Notes under the pieces: model-generated
What the model saw: only the letters and a program-made list of their open reading frames with translations
Databases searched by the model: none
What the model was told of the DNA's origin: nothing
In this document: piece after piece, positions 10,942 to 56,697 of the stretch
How the letters are laid out: each line of letters starts with the position of its first letter
How positions within the stretch are numbered: position 1 is the stretch's first letter
Made by a program: the position numbers and the translations under genes
Assembly: GCF_049472675.1 (NCBI RefSeq)
Contig: NZ_JAPNXM010000007.1
Span: 25,521-89,520 of the forward strand
Direction: 5' to 3'
Length of the DNA: 64,000 nucleotides
Source of the DNA: Deferribacter thermophilus
GTDB lineage: Bacteria > Chrysiogenota > Deferribacteres > Deferribacterales > Deferribacteraceae

Positions 10942-11940
10942 TTATTTAGTTTTAATTATCTTTCCATCGATATCACTGTATAGTTTTGAAAAAAATCTTT
11001 CTTTATCTCTTTCATATTTAGGAGCAAAATGTAAAAATTTTACAAACTTTGCACCACTTACTTCAAAAATCATTTTGGCTAACTCTACTGTTAAATGTTT
11101 TTTATAAATAGCATCCAAAACATCATCTTTTAAAAACATAGCTTCAATCAATAAAACAAATGTATTTTTAGCAAAATTGACAGCTTTTTTGAAATTTTCA
11201 TAAGTTGGAGCAATATCTGTAATAAAAGTGATATCCTGAGGTTCTTTGTAAATTACCAAATTTTGTTCGAGCTCTTTTAAAGATACCTTTTTTATCCCCT
11301 CAACAGTTTCAACATCAATCTCTTCCCTCAAATCAACGCAATTTCTCAGTTTAGACTTTAAAACTGTAAGCCAAGGGCCTGGAATATATCCAAATTTATC
11401 AAACACATCTTTCTTTATATTTACATGTTTTTCTTCTTTTATCCTATATCCAACAGAAGGGATACCATGATCAAAAAACTCATACTCTAAAATAAAACCA
11501 TCTTCTAACTCTATCCTGTCAGCAACCAAATCACAATATTCTGGGACAAAACCATTCGCAGCATCAAACAAAGCACAATTTATTTTTCCATCTAAACCAA
11601 GCTCGAAAACTTCAATTTTAAAAGTGTAGTTCTTTATCAAATTCCAGGTATAGGCATCAAGCTTACCTTTAACATTTTTAATAATCCCAGGTGGGCCAAA
11701 AACTCTCACTTTTTTATCTGAGCGCAACATCCCTCTTAATATTCTATCAAATCCATAAAAATGATCTATATGTGTGTGACTAACAAAGATATCAGAAATA
11801 CTTAATATTTCAGAATTTTCTATATTACCAAGCCTGCCACAATCAAGTAAAAAAGCCTGCCTTTTGTAAATATTTCGCACAAAAAAAGCTGTATCTTCAA
11901 AAGGTGAATTTACCTGCTTTATTGTAAAATTATGGCGCAT
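10942..11940 (-). CDS. MBL-fold metallo-hydrolase
   Basis: HTHIDH motif. 332 aa. The start overlaps the upstream kinase stop by 1 nt. Confidence 0.75.
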   Translation of the reverse strand: MRHNFTIKQVNSPFEDTAFFVRNIYKRQAFLLDCGRLGNIENSEILSISDIFVSHTHIDHFYGFDRILRGMLRSDKKVRVFGPPGIIKNVKGKLDAYTWNLIKNYTFKIEVFELGLDGKINCALFDAANGFVPEYCDLVADRIELEDGFILEYEFFDHGIPSVGYRIKEEKHVNIKKDVFDKFGYIPGPWLTVLKSKLRNCVDLREEIDVETVEGIKKVSLKELEQNLVIYKEPQDITFITDIAPTYENFKKAVNFAKNTFVLLIEAMFLKDDVLDAIYKKHLTVELAKMIFEVSGAKFVKFLHFAPKYERDKERFFSKLYSDIDGKIIKTK

Positions 11941-13478
11941 TAACTTTCTCTAATCAAAAAATCAGCTATTTTTGCTAAATTACTCTCAACTGTTTTAGTG
12001 GTTTCAATTGTCAAATCTGCCAGCTCTTTAGTTTCAAAAGAGCTCTTTTGAGCTTGAAGCAGCTCTAATCTACCATCACTAACAGTTTTTTTACTTTCTC
12101 GCTTTTTTAGTCTATCAACAATTATCTCATCAGGTGCAGTAAACAATATCTTTTTATAATTTATATTTTTTTCATCCAGTTTATCAAAATAATCTTTTTT
12201 AGAAAAACTACCATCAATGATAGCTGGCCTGCAAACACTATTTTTCAATATCACATTTTCAGCTAACCTTTCATATACCTTTAGGCTAAATTCCTTTGAA
12301 TAAATCCCTTTTCCAAAATCCTCTAATACTTTTGTCTCTGGATTTAATCCTGCTATTCTTTTTCTTTCAATATCCGTATTGAAATATGAATAAAAGTATT
12401 TATCACTAAAAGCCTTACCATTTTTTGACTTACCAGAACCCATTATCCCATAAAATACCAGATTTACATTATCATCCATATTTAAAGCATAACTAAAAGC
12501 TGCATCTACATGCCTATCCAGTGAGTTTTTAACATTTGCATAATTTTCCCAAGTTTCCCCTTTTTCCTCAAGCAAAAAGCAAGTCACTTTTGCTCTCACA
12601 TAGGCTCTATAACATTTGTAAAAATTAAGCAATTTCTTACTGTTTTCATCATCAAAAACTGAGAAAAAGCCTGCTATCAAAGAATCAGATAGGTCAATAT
12701 ATCCATTAATATCCATTTCCATAGCCAAAAAAGCTATTTCAGATACCACATCGTTATATCTAAACCTTTTGTTAAACTCTATACAATCGATAAGCCCTAT
12801 CTCGTCATTATCAAAATAGACATGCTCCAATCTCAAATCACCATGACCATCTTTGATAAATCCACCTTTCAGTCTATTTTCAAAAAGTGATTTATTCTCC
12901 TCAAGAAAATTGAGTGTTTTCTCTTTGATATAATTATAAATTTTTTCATCTAATAAACTGCCCACATACTTTTCTGTCTGCATGAAATTTTCTTCACAAT
13001 TATACTTTATCACATCAAAACTTCCAAATTCTAAAGCCTTTTCAACTGGAGTTTCGATTTTTTTAAACAACTCCGCAATATTTTTACCAACTTTATAAGC
13101 CAACTTTTCATCCACCAATCCATTTTGTACTCTATTACTAAAAAAATCCTCGTCTTTAATTCTTCTCATTTTGAGCACATAATCGATAGCAAACATAGTA
13201 TTTGTATGTGGAACTAACCTCATCTCTTTTCCAAATCTTGCTATTTTCAATACATCGAGATACACATCTTTAGAAAATCTTGAATTTAATTCTTTTTCTA
13301 AAATACAAAAATTTCTTCTACTTTTTGACAATCTATAATCGAGAAAACCAAAATCTACTGGTTTTTTAAGCTTGTATACATAATCATCAGTTATCATTGC
13401 ATAAGATATATGAGTTTCTTTAATTTCCTTAGGTTTAACCAACTCTTTTAAAATAATAGCTTCTGGTGATAAATCCAT
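11940..13478 (-). CDS. Two-domain kinase: N-terminal APH/ChoK-like phosphotransferase plus C-terminal P-loop (gluconate-kinase-like) NTPase
   Basis: Brenner motif HGDLRLEHV and DFG-like IDCIEF in the N-terminal part. Walker A GIMGSGKS in the C-terminal part. Confidence 0.7.
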   Translation of the reverse strand: MDLSPEAIILKELVKPKEIKETHISYAMITDDYVYKLKKPVDFGFLDYRLSKSRRNFCILEKELNSRFSKDVYLDVLKIARFGKEMRLVPHTNTMFAIDYVLKMRRIKDEDFFSNRVQNGLVDEKLAYKVGKNIAELFKKIETPVEKALEFGSFDVIKYNCEENFMQTEKYVGSLLDEKIYNYIKEKTLNFLEENKSLFENRLKGGFIKDGHGDLRLEHVYFDNDEIGLIDCIEFNKRFRYNDVVSEIAFLAMEMDINGYIDLSDSLIAGFFSVFDDENSKKLLNFYKCYRAYVRAKVTCFLLEEKGETWENYANVKNSLDRHVDAAFSYALNMDDNVNLVFYGIMGSGKSKNGKAFSDKYFYSYFNTDIERKRIAGLNPETKVLEDFGKGIYSKEFSLKVYERLAENVILKNSVCRPAIIDGSFSKKDYFDKLDEKNINYKKILFTAPDEIIVDRLKKRESKKTVSDGRLELLQAQKSSFETKELADLTIETTKTVESNLAKIADFLIRES

Positions 13479-43559: not shown

Positions 43560-43965
43560 AAAAGGATTTACATTAATAGAAATGATGGTTAGTTTATTTA
43601 TTTTTTCTGTGGCATTACTTGGGCTTGTAGCTTCGATGATAACTGTCAAAAAAATGAATATGAGAAATAATGTCAGAAATATTGCAATTGAGCAGGTTAA
43701 TAATGAAATCGAGAAATTAAGAGCATACGGTTTTAACAAGATAGATAATTTAATTGGCTCCTGTGAAAATATAGAGTGCTCCCCTGCAAACGACAACTGC
43801 AGCATGAAAGCCCAATATAGAAATACATGGATAAGTATAGGGAAATCTTTTACTGTAAATACTTCTGGCACTACTAAAGAAATAGTTATTACCTCTTGTT
43901 GGGAACTTTTTGGTAAAAAATATACTTATACAACTCAAACCTATATCGCAAAGGATATACAATGA
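43531..43965 (+). CDS. Type IV minor pilin (PilV-like)
   Basis: ..KKG|FTLIEMMVSL prepilin motif. The true start is probably an internal TTG/GTG just upstream of QNKKG. Confidence 0.65.
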   Translation: MVVVAVLQNKKGFTLIEMMVSLFIFSVALLGLVASMITVKKMNMRNNVRNIAIEQVNNEIEKLRAYGFNKIDNLIGSCENIECSPANDNCSMKAQYRNTWISIGKSFTVNTSGTTKEIVITSCWELFGKKYTYTTQTYIAKDIQ

Positions 43966-44882
43966 ACAAAAAAGGTTTAACATTAATAGAACTCTTAATA
44001 GTGATTTTTTTATTGGCTATTATATTATCAGCTGTTTATATAACCTATACTACACTTTTAAAAGATTACAGAAAAGAAACTAAGAATATAGAAACAGAAA
44101 TAGAAAAAATGGTGGGACTTGATATTTTAAGACTTGATATCACCCATGCTGGATACGGTATATCAGATAATGAAACATCAAAAGTGATAGAATGTATTAA
44201 TTGTGAAGATCCTGATAATATTTCTTTTATAATTAGATCCACTTTTAATGTTACAAACAACGATACCCAACACTGGATCTTTGTAGATGCTGATGATAAT
44301 AAAACAATTGGAACGCCAGATAACAATATAAAATATGTATATATTGATATTAATAAAAAACTTTTAAAAGATAGTGCTTTGTGGACTAACAAGCCTAACA
44401 GTGGGAAATATATTGCTTACCCTGTACAAGACAATGCTACAGGTTGTTCTAATCAAACTTGTACAAAAATAACTTACAAACTAAGCACAACTAATTTACC
44501 TGAAACATGTAATCCTAATACCTTTAAATTACTCAGGGCAGTAAATAATGGTAATGGAGATCCAATTTTAGATTGTGTTGCAGATTTTAAATTAAGATTT
44601 GATTATGATAAAAATAACGATGGAGAAATAAACAGTAACGAAGAATTATTAAGTTTTGATAATATAAGTAGTGATAATTCAACTGCATTTAGAAATAAAC
44701 TAAAAAGAGTCAGAATATTTATACTTTTACAAGATGGCGGATATGATAGAGACTTTACTTTTCAGGGAGCTGACAGTAACAACAAAATAACTGTTGATGG
44801 TGTAAAATTACAACTTCCAAACAACTATACTCATTATAGATGGAAAACTGTTGTGTATACAATAAAACCTATGGATTTATGA
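43962..44882 (+). CDS. Type IV minor pilin (PilW-like)
   Basis: MNKKG|LTLIELLIV prepilin motif. 306 aa. Confidence 0.65.
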   Translation: MNKKGLTLIELLIVIFLLAIILSAVYITYTTLLKDYRKETKNIETEIEKMVGLDILRLDITHAGYGISDNETSKVIECINCEDPDNISFIIRSTFNVTNNDTQHWIFVDADDNKTIGTPDNNIKYVYIDINKKLLKDSALWTNKPNSGKYIAYPVQDNATGCSNQTCTKITYKLSTTNLPETCNPNTFKLLRAVNNGNGDPILDCVADFKLRFDYDKNNDGEINSNEELLSFDNISSDNSTAFRNKLKRVRIFILLQDGGYDRDFTFQGADSNNKITVDGVKLQLPNNYTHYRWKTVVYTIKPMDL

Positions 44883-44883
44883 T

Positions 44884-45315
44884 ATGAAAAAATTAGCAAA
44901 TTTACCTAAATTAAACAATAAGGGTATTGCTCTTTTAACAACTCTTATTTTATCGCTAGTTGCTTTAGGTTTTGTGGCAGCTATAATGTATATGCTAAAC
45001 TCATCTACAAACATTTCTGGAACACATAAAAGATACCAAAATGCACTGATGGCAGCAAGAGGTGCTAGTGAATATATAATGGACAAATTAGTATCTGGCG
45101 ATGAATCAGATTTATGCAATACTACAACATGCCCTGAAAATACACCAATTGATTTGAGCGATTTATTCAGCGATTATGAAGTAAAAGCTACTTTATTAAA
45201 CAGATATGAAGATACTGTAAGTGATATTATAATTTATTCCTTTCGTGTTACTGCAACCAATAAAAACAATCCAAAAGAAAAAAGTATTATAGAGTTTGTA
45301 TATAAAGTTGAATAA
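44884..45315 (+). CDS. PilX-like minor pilin lacking Glu+5
   Basis: ..NNKG|IALLTTLIL prepilin-like N-terminus without E5, as in PilX/GspK-type proteins. Confidence 0.55.
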   Translation: MKKLANLPKLNNKGIALLTTLILSLVALGFVAAIMYMLNSSTNISGTHKRYQNALMAARGASEYIMDKLVSGDESDLCNTTTCPENTPIDLSDLFSDYEVKATLLNRYEDTVSDIIIYSFRVTATNKNNPKEKSIIEFVYKVE

Positions 45316-48082: not shown

Positions 48083-50002
48083 TTGTTTTATTTATGTAAA
48101 CAAAAACAGGGTTATTGTATGATTTCACATTTGAATGAACTATGTGTTAATTATAAAAGAAAAAATTTTAATTACGATTATATAAAACAGCTTTATGAAT
48201 TATCAAATAACTTAAGAGCTTTTTATAAACAGTTAGCATTAGAGCTCTTAGATTGGGAAGATGAATTCTTAGTACCTTGCAATAATGAAGAAAATTTTGA
48301 AACTCAATGGTTCATAAAAGGGAAAATTAGTCCAATTAAAAATATATTAAAAAAACATATTCAAAATGGCAGAGGCAACAAAGCAGCTATCATTTGGAGA
48401 GGAAAAGATTACACAGAAAGGATTTTAACTTATAGATCTCTATATGCCGATGTTTCAAAATTTGCTTCTGCTTTGAAAAAATTAAATTTAAATAGAACAG
48501 ATAAAATTTTAATCTTTATGCCAAACATCCCTGAAATTATAATAGCAATGCTTGCTTGTGTTAAACTGGGACTAGTACACACTGTTTATCATCCAAGTTA
48601 TTCTGCTGAAAATTTAGCCAGTCGTTTTGAAGACTGTAAATATTCTATTATAATTACTGCAGATGGCTATTTTTCAAAAACTACCATCAACTTAAAAGAT
48701 AAAGTTGATCAAGCTTTAAATATAAGCCAGCACAAACCAAAATATTGTATCGTTGTTAAAAGGCTTGGTCAAAGAGTACATATGAAACCTCTGAGAGATT
48801 TATGGTATCACGATTTAATTAGTGATGAAGATTATTCAAGAGCCTTTGCAATTGAAGAAGCTGTATATGATGCCAATGATACAATTTTTACTCTTGTTAC
48901 ATCTACACATCTTACTACACAAAAAGCATTAAAGTATAGAGCTGCTGGTTTTTTACTTTGGGCGAAATTTTCGCACTTGTTACTTTTTGATCCAAGTGAT
49001 GAAGATATTTTCTGGAATACTGCAGACATTTCTTGGATTACTGGTCACACATATAAAGTATATGGGCCTTTACTAAATGGTCAAACTATCTTTCTTTTTG
49101 AAGATACTATAGAGGTAGATAATGCAATGGATTTTTATGAGTTTTTAGATAAATATAATATAAACAAATTTTACACAACACCTACTATTTTAAATAGATT
49201 AATGAATGCCGATGAAAAAAAAGGTATTTTTAGAAGACAAAAGTATTTAGAGTTAATTGCAACTGGCGGTGAAAGAAGAAACGAAGAATCTACCAAATGG
49301 GCATTTAAAAAACTTTTAAATAATGAACATCCAATGATAAATATCTATACCATTACAGAAGCAGGTGGTGCAGTTTCTGCCCAAATACTAGGTTTTAGCG
49401 AGATAAAAAACATATTCTCTGTAGGAAAACCGCTTCCAGGTATACCATTGAAAATCATCGACAGTAAAACTGGCTTAGATATTGAGCAACCTTTTATTAA
49501 AGGTGAAATTACTTTTTCCTCCCCATTCCCTTCCCTAACATCTGGCTTTTGTGGAAATACCAAATTGTCAAATAAAATATATATAAAATCGATTGGAATA
49601 AACAAATTTTTTAGAACAGGAGATGGTGGAGAATATCTTGAAGATAAAGATATTCTACTTACAGGTAGGATGGATGATGTTTTACATGTTGGAGGAAAAA
49701 GGATAAATTTCTTAATGATTGAGGATGCAATAAAAAGTCATAAAAACATAAAAGATGCAGCTGTAGTAAATATTATTGATGAAAAAAGAGGGGAAACATT
49801 GATAGCTTTTTGTGTTTTAAATAAAAATATCGATGAAAGCTTTTATAATGATCTTTTTATAGAAATAAATGAATTAATAATTGATAAAGTGGGTGAAGTA
49901 ATTTTACCTGATATTTATAAAATTACTTCAATAATACCTAAACTACCAAACGGAGAAGTTAATAGAGAAATATTAAAAGAAGTTGCTTTACAAATAATAT
50001 AA
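48083..50002 (+). CDS. Acetyl-CoA synthetase-like adenylate-forming-family protein with degenerate catalytic motifs
   Basis: Aligned by eye to the ACS architecture (..AAIIWRG..YRSLY.., WITGHTY, TGD..GRMDDVLHVGGKRI). The phosphate-binding loop is STHLTTQKA instead of SGSTGKPKG. The A10 catalytic Lys position reads PKLPNGE. Confidence 0.65.
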   Translation: MFYLCKQKQGYCMISHLNELCVNYKRKNFNYDYIKQLYELSNNLRAFYKQLALELLDWEDEFLVPCNNEENFETQWFIKGKISPIKNILKKHIQNGRGNKAAIIWRGKDYTERILTYRSLYADVSKFASALKKLNLNRTDKILIFMPNIPEIIIAMLACVKLGLVHTVYHPSYSAENLASRFEDCKYSIIITADGYFSKTTINLKDKVDQALNISQHKPKYCIVVKRLGQRVHMKPLRDLWYHDLISDEDYSRAFAIEEAVYDANDTIFTLVTSTHLTTQKALKYRAAGFLLWAKFSHLLLFDPSDEDIFWNTADISWITGHTYKVYGPLLNGQTIFLFEDTIEVDNAMDFYEFLDKYNINKFYTTPTILNRLMNADEKKGIFRRQKYLELIATGGERRNEESTKWAFKKLLNNEHPMINIYTITEAGGAVSAQILGFSEIKNIFSVGKPLPGIPLKIIDSKTGLDIEQPFIKGEITFSSPFPSLTSGFCGNTKLSNKIYIKSIGINKFFRTGDGGEYLEDKDILLTGRMDDVLHVGGKRINFLMIEDAIKSHKNIKDAAVVNIIDEKRGETLIAFCVLNKNIDESFYNDLFIEINELIIDKVGEVILPDIYKITSIIPKLPNGEVNREILKEVALQII

Positions 50003-50019: not shown

Positions 50020-50451
50020 TTGATTATGATAGTGAAAGATTTTATGACAAAAAATGTCATAGTTGCTTATGAAAACGAAAATATCAGAGATGTAGTTTTA
50101 AGACTTAGAGAAAAAAATATTTCAGGGGTGCCAGTTTTAGATGAAAATAATAATGTTGTAGGAGTATTCAGTGAATCAGACCTTTTAGCCCAATTACCAG
50201 ACATATTACACGAAGCAGAACAGATCCCATTGATAGATGTAAAAGAATTAACCGATGCGCCAGTAAAAACTATAATGGGCAAGCCACCAATAACTATCCA
50301 TGAAAACGACTCACTCAAAAAAGCTGCCGAACTATTTCTAACAAAATATATTCATAGACTTCCTGTTTTAAACGATGAGGGTAAACTAGTAGGGATAATT
50401 TCACTTGGTGATGTGCTAAAAGCGTTTATAGAAAACGAATCCTGTCAATAA
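50020..50451 (+). CDS. CBS-domain pair protein
   Basis: 143 aa with two CBS motifs. Confidence 0.8.
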   Translation: MIMIVKDFMTKNVIVAYENENIRDVVLRLREKNISGVPVLDENNNVVGVFSESDLLAQLPDILHEAEQIPLIDVKELTDAPVKTIMGKPPITIHENDSLKKAAELFLTKYIHRLPVLNDEGKLVGIISLGDVLKAFIENESCQ

Positions 50452-50470: not shown

Positions 50471-51229
50471 ATGTTTGAAAATTTTTTAAGCACCTTGGAC
50501 AAGACAGTCAAGTTGCAAACTATTCCAGTTGCAACAAAATTCATCAAAGAAAGCAGCCAAATTGAAGGGATCAAAATACGATTAAAAAACAAAAAAATCA
50601 ATATTTGTCAGCAAATTGCATATTCAAGGTATTACGGATGGTCAACTTATGTTGAGGGCAACTACAGCTATTGCGTATTAGGTGCAAGCAACTGTGGATT
50701 AATTTCCACACCTGAAAGAGTAATTGAAGGGAAAGTAAATTGTTCAATATATCAAAAAGATATTAATGCTGCCAAAAAGATGCAAGAATGCATGCCAAGA
50801 GTAAAAGAAAGATTTACAGGCTTTTTAACTTACCCATTAACAAAACCTATTGAAAATATCATAACTGATGTAATAGTGATTTATGCTAATACTGCTCAAA
50901 CCATGCGTTTTCTTCAGGCATTTTTATATCATGAGGGTGGTGAATTTGTAATGAAAAGCAGTGGTGATGCTGGTGTTTGTTCAAGATGTGTTGTAGAAGC
51001 CTATCTAACAAATGAACCAAAAATTGAAATTCCCTGCCTTGGAGATAGAAGATTTGCAATGGCTCAAGATTTTGAATTAGCGATAGGTATCCCATACAAA
51101 AAATTGGATAAAGTAATTGAAGGATTACTGGAAACACATAAAGCTGGTATAAGATATCCTATCCCTTTTGATATGAAAGAGCATTGTGAATTACCAAAAG
51201 AATATACCACATTAGAAAATGATGCATGA
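50471..51229 (+). CDS. DUF169-family protein
   Basis: 252 aa. The pattern resembles DUF169/COG2043. Called from memory. Confidence 0.5.
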   Translation: MFENFLSTLDKTVKLQTIPVATKFIKESSQIEGIKIRLKNKKINICQQIAYSRYYGWSTYVEGNYSYCVLGASNCGLISTPERVIEGKVNCSIYQKDINAAKKMQECMPRVKERFTGFLTYPLTKPIENIITDVIVIYANTAQTMRFLQAFLYHEGGEFVMKSSGDAGVCSRCVVEAYLTNEPKIEIPCLGDRRFAMAQDFELAIGIPYKKLDKVIEGLLETHKAGIRYPIPFDMKEHCELPKEYTTLENDA

Positions 51230-51237
51230 GGTGAAAC

Positions 51238-51903
51238 TTGAAGCGGGATGAAGTAAAAAAGTTTGATGGAAAAAACGGCAATAGAGCATATATAATTTAC
51301 AAAGATAAAGTTTATGATGTAACTGATAGTAAATTTTGGAAAAATGGCATTCACATGTCAAGGCATAAAGCTGGTGAAGATTTAACTGATTTCATCTCAA
51401 TGGCACCCCATGGTGATGATGTTTTAGAAAGGGATAATATTAAGTTTGTTGATGTATTAGAACCTGAATCAATCAATGATAAAGAAGATAAAAAAGAGCT
51501 CTTAAGAAAGCTTTATAGTAAATTACACCCCCACCCTATTTTTGTGCATTTTCCAATGGGTATATTTTACTTTGGAGCATTAATGCAACTGTTATATCTT
51601 TTAACTAAAAACAGTACCTTTGAAAAAAGCGGATTTTATGCATTAATAGTTGCTACAATATCTATATTTCCTACAGTAACTTCGGGCATTTTAAGCTGGT
51701 GGATAAATTACGATTTAACATTAACAAAAATCTTTAAAAACAAAATAGTTTATTCTGTTATACTTACCGTTTTATCCATTTTATTAATTTTTATTAAATT
51801 GCAATCATCATCTATTATAATTTATACAGTCGGTTATTTTTTACTTATACCCATACTTACTTTTATTGCATACAATGGTGGTAAAATTACCTGGCCTAAT
51901 TAG
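51238..51903 (+). CDS. Cytochrome b5-like heme/steroid-binding domain fused to a 4-TM membrane domain
   Basis: N-terminal ..FDGKNGNRAYIIYKDKVYDVTDSKFWKNGIHM..HKAGEDLT resembles COG4892. The C-terminal half is hydrophobic. Confidence 0.55.
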   Translation: MKRDEVKKFDGKNGNRAYIIYKDKVYDVTDSKFWKNGIHMSRHKAGEDLTDFISMAPHGDDVLERDNIKFVDVLEPESINDKEDKKELLRKLYSKLHPHPIFVHFPMGIFYFGALMQLLYLLTKNSTFEKSGFYALIVATISIFPTVTSGILSWWINYDLTLTKIFKNKIVYSVILTVLSILLIFIKLQSSSIIIYTVGYFLLIPILTFIAYNGGKITWPN

Positions 51904-51925
51904 TTTTTAATTTTGGAGGAATGAA

Positions 51926-52168
51926 ATGGATAAAAAGTCTAAAATAAAGGCCTTAGAGCAAATGATAGAAGTAGTGCTAATTAGAATACCAAAAGAGATT
52001 GAGGCCATGAGATTTTATAAATCAGCAGCAGAAAAAGCTGTAGATGAAAATGCAAAAAAACTTTTTGAATCTTTAGCAGAGCAAGAAAAAGGGCATGAAG
52101 CAGAACTGAGAAGAATACTAGAAAATTTAAAAGCTCAATTATCCGAATTAAAAAATTCCAGCTCTTGA
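51926..52168 (+). CDS. Small ferritin/rubrerythrin-like helical protein
   Basis: 80 aa. E..H pattern (EQEKGHEAELR) as in ferritin-like half-domains. Weak. Confidence 0.4.
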   Translation: MDKKSKIKALEQMIEVVLIRIPKEIEAMRFYKSAAEKAVDENAKKLFESLAEQEKGHEAELRRILENLKAQLSELKNSSS

Positions 52169-52205
52169 TGTTGTAAATAATTTAAAAATCTGTTATCATA
52201 ATTAT

Positions 52206-52886
52206 ATGAATAACTTAATAAGTTCATTTAAATTACAAGAAAAACATATCGAAATTTTTAAAAAATATGGAAATGAACTTAATATAAAAACAGGAGAATT
52301 CCTTTTTTATGAAAATGATGAAGCAAAATCTGCATATCTCTTACTTGAAGGTGAACTTGATGTTTTAATCAAAGATAGCGTTGATTCTCTACGTTTAATA
52401 AATAAGCTTCATCCAATCACTCTTTTTGGAGAAATGGGCTTATTTACTACAGGTAAAAGAACAGCGACAATCAGGGCAACCAAAAATTCTAAAATAATAG
52501 AAATTGAATATAAAACCTTTCTTAGCATTGCATCTAAAATTCCAGCAGTAAATCTTAATATGATTAAAGAATTAAGTAAAAGACTAAAAGAATGTAACGA
52601 AAAATTAATAGAAAATATTGACTATCAAGCCAAAACTAAAACCATAACATATATTTATAAAGTTTTTAAAGAAAGATCAAAAATTGAGTTTGAAGAGAAC
52701 TTAGAAAATATCTTACCTATTATAAATATAGAAAAGAGTGAGCTATTAAAAACGCTTTTCTTTTTAGAAAAATTGAAAGTTATTTATCAATTAGATTTAA
52801 TTGACAACAACAAATTAAAATTTAATATTAATAAGAACTTAATTGAAAAATATTTTTTCAAATTTCTTTTAGGTGAAATAAAATAA
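52206..52886 (+). CDS. Cyclic-nucleotide-binding domain protein
   Basis: FGEMGLF..KRTATIRA cNMP-binding signature. No canonical C-terminal HTH. Confidence 0.6.
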   Translation: MNNLISSFKLQEKHIEIFKKYGNELNIKTGEFLFYENDEAKSAYLLLEGELDVLIKDSVDSLRLINKLHPITLFGEMGLFTTGKRTATIRATKNSKIIEIEYKTFLSIASKIPAVNLNMIKELSKRLKECNEKLIENIDYQAKTKTITYIYKVFKERSKIEFEENLENILPIINIEKSELLKTLFFLEKLKVIYQLDLIDNNKLKFNINKNLIEKYFFKFLLGEIK

Positions 52887-54479
52887 ATGGGATACACAGT
52901 CACTGCAAAATCATTGGAAGAAGCTTTTGAAAAAGCTCAAAAGTATTTTCAAAGAAACCTTTCTGAATTAGATTATAAAATTGTATCTATTAATCCAAAT
53001 GATGAAAATAAATATACTTTAGAATTTAATATTAAAGAGACAGTTATAGGTAAATCTGGAAAATTATACGAAGAGATTTTCACTGACGAGTTTGAAGTTA
53101 TTATTTCAGATGACGAGATGAAAGCTTATCTATTTATCCCTGAAAAACCAAAAAAAAATATAGACAAAGATTACTTGGTTAATTTATTAAATGAAAACAG
53201 TGTAAAAAGTGGTATTCTTACAGATGTTTTAGAGAAAATTGTACTTTTTCTAAAAAATGACAAACCTTTAGATTCATCAATATTAGTTGCAAAAGGAAAA
53301 CCTCCAAAAAATGGAAATAATGGAGAGCTTATTTTAAAAAGCAAATCAGACGATATCTTAGACTCATTTTTAACAGCAGATGAAATAGATGACAAAATAG
53401 ATTATAAAGAAGTTTTTAAAAAAAGGCTTTTTATTGTTGAAGAAAATGAAGAAGTAGCAATGATAATCCCCCCTTCCAAAGGGGAAGATGGCTTTACAGT
53501 AACAGGGAAAGTATTACCTGCAAAAGATGGAAAGCCTGTAGAAGTTAAATTAACAGATAATTTAATACTCAAAGACAACAAAATTATTTCTAAAATCAAA
53601 GGGTTGCTTTTAGTAAAACAAACAGATAATCTTAACTATGAAATAGATGTTTCAGAAGTATTTATAGTTAATGAAGATGTTGATTATTCTACTGGGAATA
53701 TAGATTTTCCTGGCTCAGTCATTATCAAAGGGGAAGTAAAAACTGATTTTACTGTAAAAGCTGGAAAAGATGTAATAGTCCAATCTGTCTCTGGAAACAT
53801 TTTAGCTGAAGGGAAAATTATAGTTAAAGAAGGTGTCACGGGAAAAAGTTTTGCAAATAGAAATATAATTAAGGCTGATGAGTTAGAAGCAAGTTATATA
53901 CAATTTTCAAATATCACTGTAAACAAAGATATAAAAGTAAAAAAATATATTAGAGATTCAATAATTTATAGTGAAGGGAAAGTAGAAGTAACAGGTACAC
54001 CCGGAATGGTTTATGGAGGGAAAATAAATGCTTTAGAAGGGATTACAGTAAAAATATTAGGCTCACCTTCATTTACCAAAACTGTAGTTTCCACTGGTAT
54101 ATCAACTAAAATTTTAAACGATATTTCCACTTTATTAGCAGAAAAAAGTGCAATAAATGAACAACTAACAAAAATCAGACTCTATCTTGGTAATGCAGAT
54201 CGTCCATTAGTAAGGGATAAATTAAAAGAAAAAATAGAAAAATTGAAAGCAACAAAATTTGAACTCAACAAAAAATTAATGAGTATAGAAGTAAAACTTA
54301 AGGAGTTGTATGAAGAAGTGCAAAAATTCAAAAACTCAAAAATTGAAGTTTTAAAAGAGGCTTATCCTAATGTAAAAATTATTATTGGGGAAGCTACCTT
54401 ATTATTAGAAAAGAAGTTAAGAAATGGATATTTCTTTTATAATAAAGATAAAAATGCAATTGATTATATGTTGAAATAA
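52887..54479 (+). CDS. FapA/DUF342-family protein
   Basis: 530 aa. Central beta-solenoid-like repeats and a C-terminal coiled coil. Confidence 0.55.
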   Translation: MGYTVTAKSLEEAFEKAQKYFQRNLSELDYKIVSINPNDENKYTLEFNIKETVIGKSGKLYEEIFTDEFEVIISDDEMKAYLFIPEKPKKNIDKDYLVNLLNENSVKSGILTDVLEKIVLFLKNDKPLDSSILVAKGKPPKNGNNGELILKSKSDDILDSFLTADEIDDKIDYKEVFKKRLFIVEENEEVAMIIPPSKGEDGFTVTGKVLPAKDGKPVEVKLTDNLILKDNKIISKIKGLLLVKQTDNLNYEIDVSEVFIVNEDVDYSTGNIDFPGSVIIKGEVKTDFTVKAGKDVIVQSVSGNILAEGKIIVKEGVTGKSFANRNIIKADELEASYIQFSNITVNKDIKVKKYIRDSIIYSEGKVEVTGTPGMVYGGKINALEGITVKILGSPSFTKTVVSTGISTKILNDISTLLAEKSAINEQLTKIRLYLGNADRPLVRDKLKEKIEKLKATKFELNKKLMSIEVKLKELYEEVQKFKNSKIEVLKEAYPNVKIIIGEATLLLEKKLRNGYFFYNKDKNAIDYMLK

Positions 54480-54480
54480 A

Positions 54481-54520
54481 TAAAAAAAAGGGCTACAAAA
54501 TGCAGCCCTTAACCCTTTAT
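54481..54520. terminator. Bidirectional terminator hairpin (AGGGCTACA-aaa-TGCAGCCCT) between convergent genes
   Basis: 9-bp stem with one mismatch, flanked by A8 upstream and a T-rich tract downstream. Confidence 0.65.
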
Positions 54521-56229
54521 ATTTTAAATCTTTTTATTTGAGTTTGTAATTCTTCAGCAAGTTTTGATAACATCTCAACAGCAGTAGCCATTTCTGAAGC
54601 AGCTATTGAATTTTCATTAATTACTTTCGAAATACTTTCTATTGATCTTGCCATCATTTCTGTTGCTTTTGCTTGTTCATCGGTTGCTCTAGCTATATTT
54701 TCAACTTCCATCGAAACAGTTTCTACATTTTCTTTAATTATATCAAGAGCTTCTTTTGCTTCATCAGCTTTTACTTTTCCTATTTCAACCTGCTCCACCC
54801 CTTCACTCATACTTGCCACAGCCCCACCTGTATCCGCTTGAATATTTTGTATCATTTCGGTAATATCTTTTGTAGCTCTCATTGTTTTTTCAGCTAGCTT
54901 TCTTACTTCATCAGCAACCACAGCAAAACCTCTACCATGCTCACCAGCTCTTGCTGCTTCAATTGCAGCGTTTAACGCTAAAAGATTCGTTTGATCAGCA
55001 ATATCATTAATAACCTGAATTATCTCACCAATTTGCTCACTTGATTCTCCAAGAGTCCTTACAGTCTCTGCAGCTTGAGAAACTGTTATTGCAATTTGAT
55101 CCATCATCTGTTTTGTCTCTTCTACCAAGGCATGACCTTTAACAACAGATTCTTTTGCTTCTGCTGCACTTTTTGCCACATTTGCAGCATTTTGAGCTAC
55201 TTCCATAACAGTTGCATTTACCTCTTCTACTGCGCTTGCTGTTGCAGCTGCCTCTTCACTTTGTTCTCTTGCACCAGCTGCAATAGCCTCAGAATTTGAA
55301 GCTAGTTGTGCCGAAGTAGAAGCTAGTGATACCACCGATTCAGAAACTGAGCTTAAAACATTTCTTATATCATCCACCATTTTATTTACAGCTTTTGCAA
55401 CAGCACCAACCTCATCATCATACTTTACATCCACTTTTGCGGTAAAATCACCATTTGCAATTCTTGCCAAGGCTGCATTAATATTATCAAATCTTGAGAA
55501 TATCAATTTTGAATTTAAAATATAAAGCATTGCAATAATTATAATTAAAACAATTATTAAAACAGAAAAATCTCTTGTGATATTTTTATTTATCATAGCA
55601 TTAATTGGAGCTAGAGGAATAAAAATTTCAAATGCACCATGTACTTCACCTGCTTTCCAACCCTCCATTTTAACTCCTGTTGGATCCAACCCTTTGTCAT
55701 TCCCCCAATATTTCTCACTCTCAGCTGGATCTCCATGACACCATTCACACTCTTTAGAAAGTCTTATGGCTTTAAAATATCTTATATAACCAGAATCTTT
55801 ATCTATTAAAACCTTCTCAGGGGTATTTCCAGTGCCTGTATCTTTACTTTTTAACTCAGATAATACTTCTTCCTCTAAAGAATCAGGTTGATTATCAGGG
55901 TTTCTTGGTGAAACTTTAGGAACTTTAAATTTTATACCTAACTCTTTTGCCTTACTTTTAATTATTTTCATTGAACTAACAACAGGAACTGTCAATAAAA
56001 ACTTATTTACATCCTTTTTAATTTCATCAAAATTGTATAAATTAGCGTCCCATTTTTTAGCCATAAACTCTCTTGTCCCTTCAGCAACTACAATAATATT
56101 TCTTGCCCTTTCAACTTGAGATTCAATAGCAGTTTTTTTTGCAATTTTTGCGCTAAACAGAAATAAGATACTAAATGAAATCAACAAAATTACAGATATT
56201 ATTAGAGCTAACTTTAATTTTAAACTCAT
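54517..56229 (-). CDS. Methyl-accepting chemotaxis protein with a periplasmic sensor domain containing a CxxCH heme-c motif
   Basis: TM1 - about 190-aa periplasmic domain containing CEWCH - TM2 - HAMP - MCP signalling domain. Confidence 0.85.
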
Positions 56230-56284
56230 TATTTACCCCCAAAATCACAGATTTATTATATAATCGTCAATATAAAGAAAATAT

Positions 56285-56697
56285 TTAATTTTTTTCAATA
56301 TTCTTTAAAAAGGAAACAAGAACAATATCTGTTTTTAAAATATGATTTTCATACCATTCTCTTAACGATTTTAATACTAATAAAGTATCAGCTTTATTCA
56401 TACCACTTAAAATTTTTAATCTTTTTTTAGCAAAATCTTTTCTAAACTTTCATGTTCCAACTTATGTACTTCATAATCTGGATAGTTATATTTTTGCATA
56501 AACTCTTCTTCAGTTTTGAAATGAGTTTTTACATAGTTTTCTAAAAATGTTAAGGAATCTGAAATAGCTTTTTCACCCTCCCCTACTTTAAAGTATTTTT
56601 CAATTTTTGCCAATAAATAAAACATAGCTCCATGCTGCTCATCAATCCTATCTATCCCAGTTATTAAATTCTCTGGTAAATATTCTTTCATTAACAC
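56285..56697 (-). pseudogene. Hemerythrin-like protein interrupted by a -1/+2 frameshift at or near an A7 (T7 on +) homopolymer
   Basis: The 5' ORF (93 aa) ends ..HKLEHESLEKILLKKD*. The hemerythrin C-terminus (KDFAKKRLKILSGMNKADTLLVLKSLREWYENHILKTDIVLVSFLK) continues in another frame, starting inside the overlap. The T7 run is at about 56425-56431. The joined length is about 135 aa, typical for hemerythrin. Confidence 0.6.

Follow-up and report, generated by a model that had tools for sequence, protein, structure and literature searches.

An acetyl-CoA synthetase-like protein of Deferribacter thermophilus without the glycine-rich A3 loop and the A10 lysine: a candidate ligand-binding paralogue

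What is the role of a protein that has the length and the domain layout of an acetyl-CoA synthetase (ACS), and in which the glycine-rich phosphate-binding loop and the lysine used for adenylation are both replaced? The question is raised by a gene lying in a stretch of 64,000 nucleotides of Deferribacter thermophilus DNA (RefSeq assembly GCF_049472675.1, contig NZ_JAPNXM010000007.1, positions 25,521 to 89,520; the whole stretch is called the window here), the product of which we refer to as the variant ACS. The names attached to this protein conflict, submitters using "acetyl-CoA synthetase", UniProt "acetate--CoA ligase" and RefSeq "AMP-binding protein"; published metabolic reconstructions take DEFDS_0854 of D. 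desulfuricans (PMC2885270) and FHQ18_07465 of D. autotrophicus (PMC6896113) as acetyl-CoA synthetase. An earlier note on this DNA had considered the protein a likely pseudo-enzyme with a regulatory rather than a metabolic role. The reading that we favour, and to which we give an even chance of being right, is that the variant ACS is a non-adenylating, ligand-binding ACS paralogue that helps to regulate acetate uptake or activation.

State of the catalytic motifs

The open reading frame (ORF) called mechanically at 48083..50002 on the + strand encodes 639 residues from a TTG codon and contains no internal stop; as the orthologues are 627 residues long and begin at an equivalent position, the true start is probably the ATG at 48119. 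The protein belongs to the ANL superfamily, with matches to PF00501 (E-value 4.6e-53, 180.8 bits against a Pfam gathering cut-off of 29.9) and to PF13193 (E-value 7e-9, 36.9 bits against 24.5). The top NCBIfam models are those for acetate--CoA ligase, both curated cut-offs of which are missed by about 200-270 bits (NF001208, 457 against 657; TIGR02188, 452 against 724.95), and no NCBIfam model claims the variant family. The top sequence matches in the PDB are ACS structures (E-value about 1e-90, about 30% identity). An AlphaFold2 model, built from the clade alignment described below, has a predicted local distance difference test score (pLDDT) of 87.5 and a predicted TM-score (pTM) of 0.83, with dips at the remodelled phosphate-binding loop (P-loop) and at the A8 hairpin, and is superposed by Foldseek on Salmonella enterica Acs with a TM-score of 0.83. 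The ACS layout and the kept motifs WITGHTY, YTITEAGG, TGD and GRMDDVLHVGGKRI, all named in the earlier note, are confirmed, the protein being a full-length ACS homologue.

The state of the motifs was determined from an L-INS-i alignment of 122 sequences (47 proteins of the variant clade, 2 intermediates and 73 canonical ACS), in which exact S. enterica numbering was used. The alignment of A3 and A10 is unambiguous because both loops have the canonical length and are anchored on both sides (YTS...PK for A3, PK...G.I.R for A10), and a HMMER alignment to S. enterica Acs agrees on the placement of both. In the A3 loop, position 266 is Thr in all 47 clade proteins whereas it is Gly in all 73 canonical ACS; positions T268, G269 and K270 are variable or acidic, K270 being usually replaced by Glu, and G273 is also lost or changed. 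In the A10 region, Lys609 is found in 73/73 canonical ACS and in none of the clade proteins, which carry Val, Glu, Ser, Ala, Ile and others at this position, and no Lys occurs there in 18 variant proteins from Desulfuromonadales either. Among 160 canonical-invariant sites the K609 column ranks third in variability (entropy 2.75 bits); the position has been abandoned rather than re-purposed. Both of the replacements proposed in the earlier note, a P-loop reading TSTHLTTQKA and a Glu in place of the A10 lysine, are thus upheld by HMMER and by the structure-anchored alignment, and a regular-expression scan of the whole protein for an intact copy elsewhere found no other glycine-rich A3-like loop and no A10-like GK context.

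The changes extend beyond these two loops. Conservation in canonical ACS reaches 95% or more at 127 sites; of these, 69 are kept in the clade, 49 are lost or variable, and nine have switched to another state (F163H, G165S, deletion of R191, G266T, G332D, V386G, Y496F, N521H and H525K). The site for the CoA nucleotide and pantetheine is altered (F163H, G164/165 with G165S, R191 deleted, A357T), F163, G165, R191 and A357 being all invariant in the canonical ACS of the alignment. The acetate pocket is changed by V386G (47/47), T412I, W413Y, W414S/T and Q415L/I, the W414 position being Gly in the Desulfuromonadales proteins. On the other hand, the residues of the adenine, ribose and alpha-phosphate site are kept (W309, G312, H313, G387, E388, T416, E417, G419, D500, R515), as are D517 of the hinge and G524 and R526 of A8; W309, H313, E388, T416, E417, D500, R515, D517, G524 and R526 are invariant across the 47 proteins. 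As judged from this alignment, the old active site, that is the AMP site, is the most conserved part of the variant ACS. Compared with canonical Acs (S. enterica 1PG4/2P2F; TIGR02188, NF001208), the variant is therefore alike in length, in the two-domain ANL fold and in sequence at about 30-34% identity, and shares A4, the Thr-Glu of A5, the Asp of A7, the hinge Arg/Asp of A8, G524 and R526, hence the AMP/ribose site and the hinge; it departs from it in family scores, A3 glycines, A10 lysine, CoA site and the acyl pocket around V386 and W414. The loss of the A3 glycines and of the A10 lysine, together with the altered CoA and acetate sites, makes a competent acetate:CoA ligase unlikely, and the loss of catalytic elements in a protein whose old active site is its most conserved part is the signature expected of a ligand-binding pseudoenzyme.

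In ANL enzymes the pyrophosphate leaving group is held by the A3 loop. It is the adenylation half-reaction that the A10 lysine stabilises (PMC11253843), and in Acs acetylated on this lysine adenylation is abolished while the thioester step still runs (PMC11255334). By analogy with the mutagenesis and acetylation of K609 in real ACS, the variant ACS has most likely lost ATP-dependent adenylation. The off state of Acs, acetylated on K609 or carrying K609A (1PG3, 2P2J), resembles the variant in that the A10 lysine is unavailable in both, and such Acs still folds and binds AMP-type ligands, as the variant may do by the same analogy (PMC11255334). In the variant, however, the loss of the lysine is genetic and permanent, and comes with a remodelled P-loop, CoA site and acyl pocket.

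Distribution and evolution of the variant family

A homology search recovered 46 clusters at 44-81% identity to the window protein, followed by a sharp drop to canonical ACS at about 34%. All named clusters are from Deferribacterota (Deferribacter, Denitrovibrio, Limisalsivibrio, Seleniivibrio and Calditerrivibrio), the protein of D. desulfuricans SSM1 (BAI80330.1) being 81% identical to that of the window. A scan of one genome per species revealed that about 17 metagenome-assembled genomes (MAGs) of Desulfuromonadaceae and Geobacteraceae carry a sister clade, with 35-39% identity, and an exhaustive profile search of 1.84 billion representatives yielded only three or four 50%-identity clusters of variant type, among them a third lineage represented by protein P0122 and found at locus L050 (our loci are numbered from L001). 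The closest named relatives of a canonical ACS encoded at L050 are from Dadabacteria and Deferrisomatales, which indicates that a third lineage carries the variant family. Altogether the carriers amount to about 40 species. In a neighbour-joining tree, from which P0122 was left out, the variants of Deferribacterota and of Desulfuromonadales form one group, separate from canonical ACS.

The A3 and A10 loops read TSG[ST]TGKPKG and PKTRSGKIMRR in canonical ACS, TST[NH]xxxPK[AG] and PK[SG]PDGx in the Deferribacterota variants, TS[ST]KSKxPRG and PKTP[DE]N[RQT] in those of Desulfuromonadales, and TSTNVQSPQG and PKGPDGE in the lineage of P0122 and L050. As G266, G269 and K609 are absent from every member (about 65 proteins in three lineages), their loss is ancestral to the variant family.

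The ratio of nonsynonymous to synonymous substitution rates (dN/dS) of the variant gene comes to 0.084 in the comparison with D. desulfuricans and to 0.103 in that with D. abyssi, within the range of 0.04-0.23 seen for the neighbouring genes, all these ratios being approximate because dS is near saturation. The gene is thus functional and under purifying selection, and with catalytic residues lost in all orthologues the family has the sequence attributes by which pseudoenzymes are defined. Identity between variants falls to 43% within Deferribacterota and lies at 35-44% between the Deferribacterota and Desulfuromonadales clades, whereas canonical ACS remain at least 51% identical in pairwise comparison (14-sequence sample), and across phyla the canonical enzyme encoded at L050 still has 69-77% identity to its counterparts in Spirochaetota, Nitrospirota, Desulfobacterales and Xanthomonadaceae. 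By this measure of sequence divergence, the variant family evolves much faster than canonical ACS.

Two further sequences were considered during these searches. P0121 (1273 residues) has a high profile score and was rejected as a family member, since it is a tandem double ACS in which the A10 lysine is kept: its N-terminal copy is canonical, and its C-terminal copy has a partly degenerate P-loop, TAEASGNPKG, and an RTRTGKIV segment with the lysine. A contig of 4.1 kb labelled as a Chloroflexota MAG (L026, JADFVC010000352.1) carries an RNase_T gene, a variant ACS gene and the gene of a protein of about 480 residues, at 76-80% identity to Desulfuromonadaceae loci; its label is probably a binning error and not a true occurrence in Chloroflexota.

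Conserved gene context and possible roles

In every Deferribacterota locus the variant gene has a constant partner, the gene of a CBS-pair protein. The common order in this phylum is DUF4212, SSF permease, a small ORF, a cNMP/CBS/DUF294 gene (cNMP, cyclic nucleoside monophosphate), variant ACS and CBS pair, with DUF169 in some genomes. In Desulfuromonadales it is (DUF485-SSF, DUF4212-SSF) ... RNase_T exonuclease, variant ACS, a protein of about 480 residues and a convergent DUF294 gene. Altogether, DUF294, RNase_T and CBS genes adjoin the variant in about 40 loci. This conserved context (Apl/ActP-type permease, DUF294, RNase_T exonuclease) is acetate-metabolic and ties the variant to acetate use; an acetate permease, a DUF294 protein and an exonuclease are also the kind of neighbours that canonical Acs has. 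In Pseudomonas, MxtR/ErdR, which regulates the utilisation of acetate, has a CBS protein of the DUF294 type and an RNase_T exonuclease among its targets, and in P. aeruginosa their genes adjoin actP/yjcH (PMC9927547). Both gene families (pp_0354/pp_0353, of the PA3233/PA3232 type, in the MxtR/ErdR = CrbS/R regulon) flank the variant in Desulfuromonadales and at L050, near DUF4212-SSF, whereas in most Deferribacterota only DUF294 of the pair does so; the Pseudomonas operon, for its part, is without a variant ACS.

Locus L050 (885-9890) is the most telling of these contexts. Along one strand it encodes a canonical ACS in which every motif is intact, which has 61% identity to S. enterica Acs and lies in an operon with DUF4212-SSF; a divergent operon, which does not include the permease, consists of a small ORF, cNMP-binding, CBS/DUF294 and RNase_T genes, and the variant ACS gene as the last. 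With an intact ACS beside it, the variant is not the metabolic ACS at this locus and belongs with the signalling-type genes.

The partner protein, of about 141-143 residues, is 98% identical between the window and D. desulfuricans, and Pfam finds a CBS pair only. It resembles the Bateman domains of MJ1225, of AMPK gamma and of AcuB (E-value about 1e-11 for the latter). AcuB, a Bateman+ACT protein of Firmicutes, binds adenine nucleotides, senses AMP or Ap4A and tunes ACS activity (PMC13121692, PMC13039410), and in acsA-acuABC of Bacillus and Geobacillus the gene of the Bateman protein stands beside an ACS-family gene, as at the variant locus. The partner is nevertheless distinct from an AcuB-type protein, which combines a Bateman domain with a C-terminal ACT domain and is encoded with acuA and acuC: the match covers the Bateman part only, the ACT domain is missing, the annotated flanks of the variant locus showed no gene resembling acuA or acuC, and the lysine targeted by AcuA/AcuC is absent from the variant.

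Two proteins of these loci merit a separate mention. The product of 477-483 residues encoded downstream of the Desulfuromonadales variant (L024, about 11900-13300, and in the same place in L022 and L025-L040) begins with MPFFFPEHAQ, carries the motifs GAELEFSN and HSLHLNVE, and has no Pfam match and no PDB sequence match; that it is a cryptic CBS pair was rejected, the hhalign probability being 0.3%. The small ORF, of 75-79 residues and without a Pfam match, is found at L002 (7793-8020) and L004 (5814-6044) between the SSF permease and DUF294 genes, where it overlaps the DUF294 start by a few bases, and at L050 (5187-5426) directly upstream of the cNMP-binding/DUF294 genes; the L004 copy is 62% identical to that of L002, to which the L050 ORF has no match.

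How could such a protein act? The motif losses, the conserved AMP site, the Bateman-like CBS partner, the AcuB precedent and the ANL domain closure are the grounds on which we favour a non-adenylating sensor or regulatory subunit, and it is from sequence and gene order that we infer ligand binding, the CBS partnership and a regulatory output. The variant ACS would bind a ligand in its old active site, either an adenine nucleotide or an acyl-adenylate and/or a short carboxylate, and the ligand-driven closure of the ANL domains would pass the information on. Closure of this kind on ligand binding is described as robust enough for engineered biosensors (PMC10590383). That D. desulfuricans has AckA-Pta as an alternative route of acetate activation (PMC2885270) also fits the favoured reading. 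The protein would work with the adjacent CBS-pair protein as the putative sensor of adenine nucleotides and, in other lineages, also with the cNMP/CBS/DUF294 nucleotidyltransferase-like protein and the RNase_T exonuclease, so that acetate uptake or activation may be regulated by energy or acyl status. The suggestion of the earlier note that the role is regulatory and not metabolic is in this respect supported by the family-wide losses, by purifying selection and by the intact ACS alongside at L050, and is tempered by a conserved context that is itself acetate-metabolic.

ANL modules with degenerate core motifs and non-catalytic or altered roles exist, namely catalytically silent adenylation domains of nonribosomal peptide synthetases and the fatty acyl-AMP ligase (FAAL)-like domains of DIP2. 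These are embedded in large multidomain proteins, whereas the variant ACS is free-standing and lies in an acetate locus.

Several points weigh against a purely regulatory paralogue. In most Deferribacterota loci the variant follows the permease, at exactly the position of acs, and the 10 kb flanking it on each side hold no canonical ACS; a large search for a Deferribacterota canonical ACS with that of L050 matched only Dadabacteria, Deferrisomatales and other lineages. The contig of the nearest canonical-motif ACS (P0049) showed no informative shared genes in comparison with Deferribacterota DNA. The genome paper of D. desulfuricans lists the variant gene as the only Acs (PMC2885270). The protein itself keeps more than a simple binder seems to need, namely the hinge Asp, G524 and R526 of the thioester-forming conformation and the Mg/phosphate ligands T416 and E417; its acyl pocket, opened by V386G and the change of W414, resembles that of genuine medium-chain ligases; and the conserved basic residues gained in the clade (P389K/R, H525K, I554K) could in principle compensate for those lost.

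Most of these observations would also be expected if the variant ACS were still a working acyl-CoA (or acyl-AMP) ligase with non-canonical catalysis and a wider pocket, activating acetate or a larger monocarboxylate delivered by the neighbouring SSF permease, with a relocated basic residue in place of K609 and phosphates held by the altered loop. The position of acs downstream of DUF4212-SSF is occupied in this way in Denitrovibrio, Limisalsivibrio and many MAGs, the carriers oxidise acetate anaerobically, and D500, R515 and D517 are invariant along with T416, E417, G524 and R526. However, there is no constraint on the K609 position and no replacement for it that is common to the three variant lineages, K525 and K554 being absent from the Desulfuromonadales proteins; the glycines of the P-loop are all gone and K270 is usually Glu; the CoA site is altered; an intact ACS occupies the same locus as the variant at L050; and the family evolves much faster than real ACS. 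We regard this working ligase as unlikely, yet as the strongest of the alternatives.

More speculative, and in our estimation rather improbable, is that the variant ACS receives or generates an adenylate-containing signal (an acyl-adenylate, an Ap4A-type dinucleotide or another nucleotide) that is made or removed by the DUF294 protein and the DEDDh exonuclease and read with the CBS/Bateman proteins, or else that it is an ANL enzyme adenylating without the A10 lysine and the glycine-rich loop. The former would amount to a previously unrecognised nucleotide-signalling circuit by which anaerobic acetate oxidisers tie the uptake of acetate to their energy charge, the latter to a new catalytic solution for the ANL superfamily.

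To a repurposed enzyme or one performing a partial reaction we give a still smaller chance. It could, for example, transfer the acyl group of a ready-made acyl-adenylate, cleave thioesters in an AMP-dependent manner, or make or turn over an adenylated small molecule connected with the DUF294 and exonuclease genes. Such an enzyme would account for a protein that keeps the AMP site and the residues of the thioester conformation (D517 hinge, G524, R526) and loses the adenylation-specific A3 glycines and A10 lysine, as an ACS blocked at K609 still performs the second half-reaction (PMC11255334), and the gene does adjoin those of a nucleotidyltransferase-like protein and a DEDDh exonuclease. Against this, the changes also reach the CoA-nucleotide site and, with A357T, the pantetheine tunnel, a free acyl-adenylate has no known source, and the proposal is entirely inferential. 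Finally, a decaying pseudogene or motif losses due to misalignment, either of which might be suspected from NCBIfam scores under the curated ACS cut-offs and from a RefSeq name limited to "AMP-binding protein", can be dismissed in view of the intact frame, a dN/dS of 0.08-0.10, identical states in about 40 species of at least three lineages, same-length loops anchored on both sides on which HMMER, MAFFT and Foldseek agree, and the lack of an alternative motif elsewhere in the protein.

If the favoured non-adenylating reading is right, acetate activation in the carriers must use AckA-Pta or a CoA-transferase, and the automatic EC 6.2.1.1 assignments are wrong for the whole family. A free-standing ACS homologue that is conserved while lacking the two catalytic elements most universal among ANL proteins would then provide a clear case, found in nature, of an ANL pseudoenzyme or ligand sensor; our literature searches retrieved no such example, no paper on an ACS-type protein lacking the A3 and A10 motifs, and none linking DUF294 with ACS. 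In many bacteria DUF294, RNase_T and CBS genes occur together with acs and acetate permease genes, and the variant family gives a new way of approaching their function (PMC9927547).

The locus in the window and in the genus Deferribacter

The features of the window locus are collected in Table 1. In the window as in D. desulfuricans, the variant gene is preceded by serA, yjbQ and nfi and followed, with gaps of 0-37 bp, by the genes of the CBS pair, DUF169, Cyt-b5+DUF2231, an 80-residue rubrerythrin-like protein, a cNMP-binding protein and FapA, the synteny of the two genomes extending from type IV pilus genes through panBCD. The identities of these neighbours given in the earlier note are borne out by Pfam. 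As a sensor-like gene run, however, they provide only part of the context proposed there: the CBS pair, and DUF169 in some genomes, are conserved with the variant, and the other neighbours are found in the genus Deferribacter only. The window holds no SSF, DUF4212, DUF294 or RNase_T gene, and in other Deferribacter species likewise only the CBS pair and DUF169 remain of the conserved partners. The only convincing terminator hairpin lies after FapA, at 54488-54510. Since a promoter scan of the locus gave results at chance level in this AT-rich DNA, the claim of an operon is limited to the tight gene spacing and the single terminator.

Table 1. Features of the variant ACS locus, in window coordinates; residue numbers are those of S. 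enterica Acs unless stated otherwise.
Feature	Coordinates	Strand	Remarks
Variant ACS-like gene	48119..50002	+	627 aa from ATG 48119; mechanical ORF from TTG 48083
Degenerate A3 phosphate-binding loop, TSTHLTTQKA	48899..48928	+	aligned to T264-G273; canonical TSGSTGKPKG
A4, WITGHTY, kept	49034..49054	+	W309, G312, H313; W309 and H313 invariant in the clade
GGER (canonical VGEP)	49265..49276	+	residues 395-398 of the 639-aa ORF; V386G; P389 to K/R in 43/47 clade proteins
A5, YTITEAGG (canonical WWQTETGG)	49346..49369	+	T416, E417 kept; acetate-pocket Trp414 to Ser/Thr
A8/hinge, GRMDDVLHVGGKRI	49664..49705	+	R515, D517, G524, R526 kept; clade-specific N521H, H525K
A10 region, PKLPNGEVNRE (canonical PKTRSGKIMRR, P603-R613)	49937..49969	+	K609 to Glu at 49955-49957; R606P, S607N/D, R613E/D
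CBS-pair (Bateman) protein	50020..50451	+	adjoins the variant in every Deferribacterota locus
DUF169 protein	50471..51229	+	partner in some lineages: Deferribacter, UBA1873, Es71-type MAGs
Cyt-b5+DUF2231, rubrerythrin-like (80 aa), cNMP-binding, FapA	51238..54479	+	genus-specific; synteny with D. desulfuricans only

Downstream of the terminator, on the opposite strand (54517-56697), lies the gene of a methyl-accepting chemotaxis protein with a Tll0287-like (haem-type) sensor domain and HAMP, which adjoins a hemerythrin ORF. The latter comprises 93 residues in the window and 135 in D. desulfuricans (L001, 18553-18960), perhaps because the gene is shorter, or because the mechanical call overlooked its start codon. 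On the other side, directly upstream of serA, a cluster of type IV pilus/pseudopilin genes (PilY1-like, N_methyl prepilin-type) occupies 43962-45315 in the window and is syntenic with that of D. desulfuricans (L001, 1348-7200).

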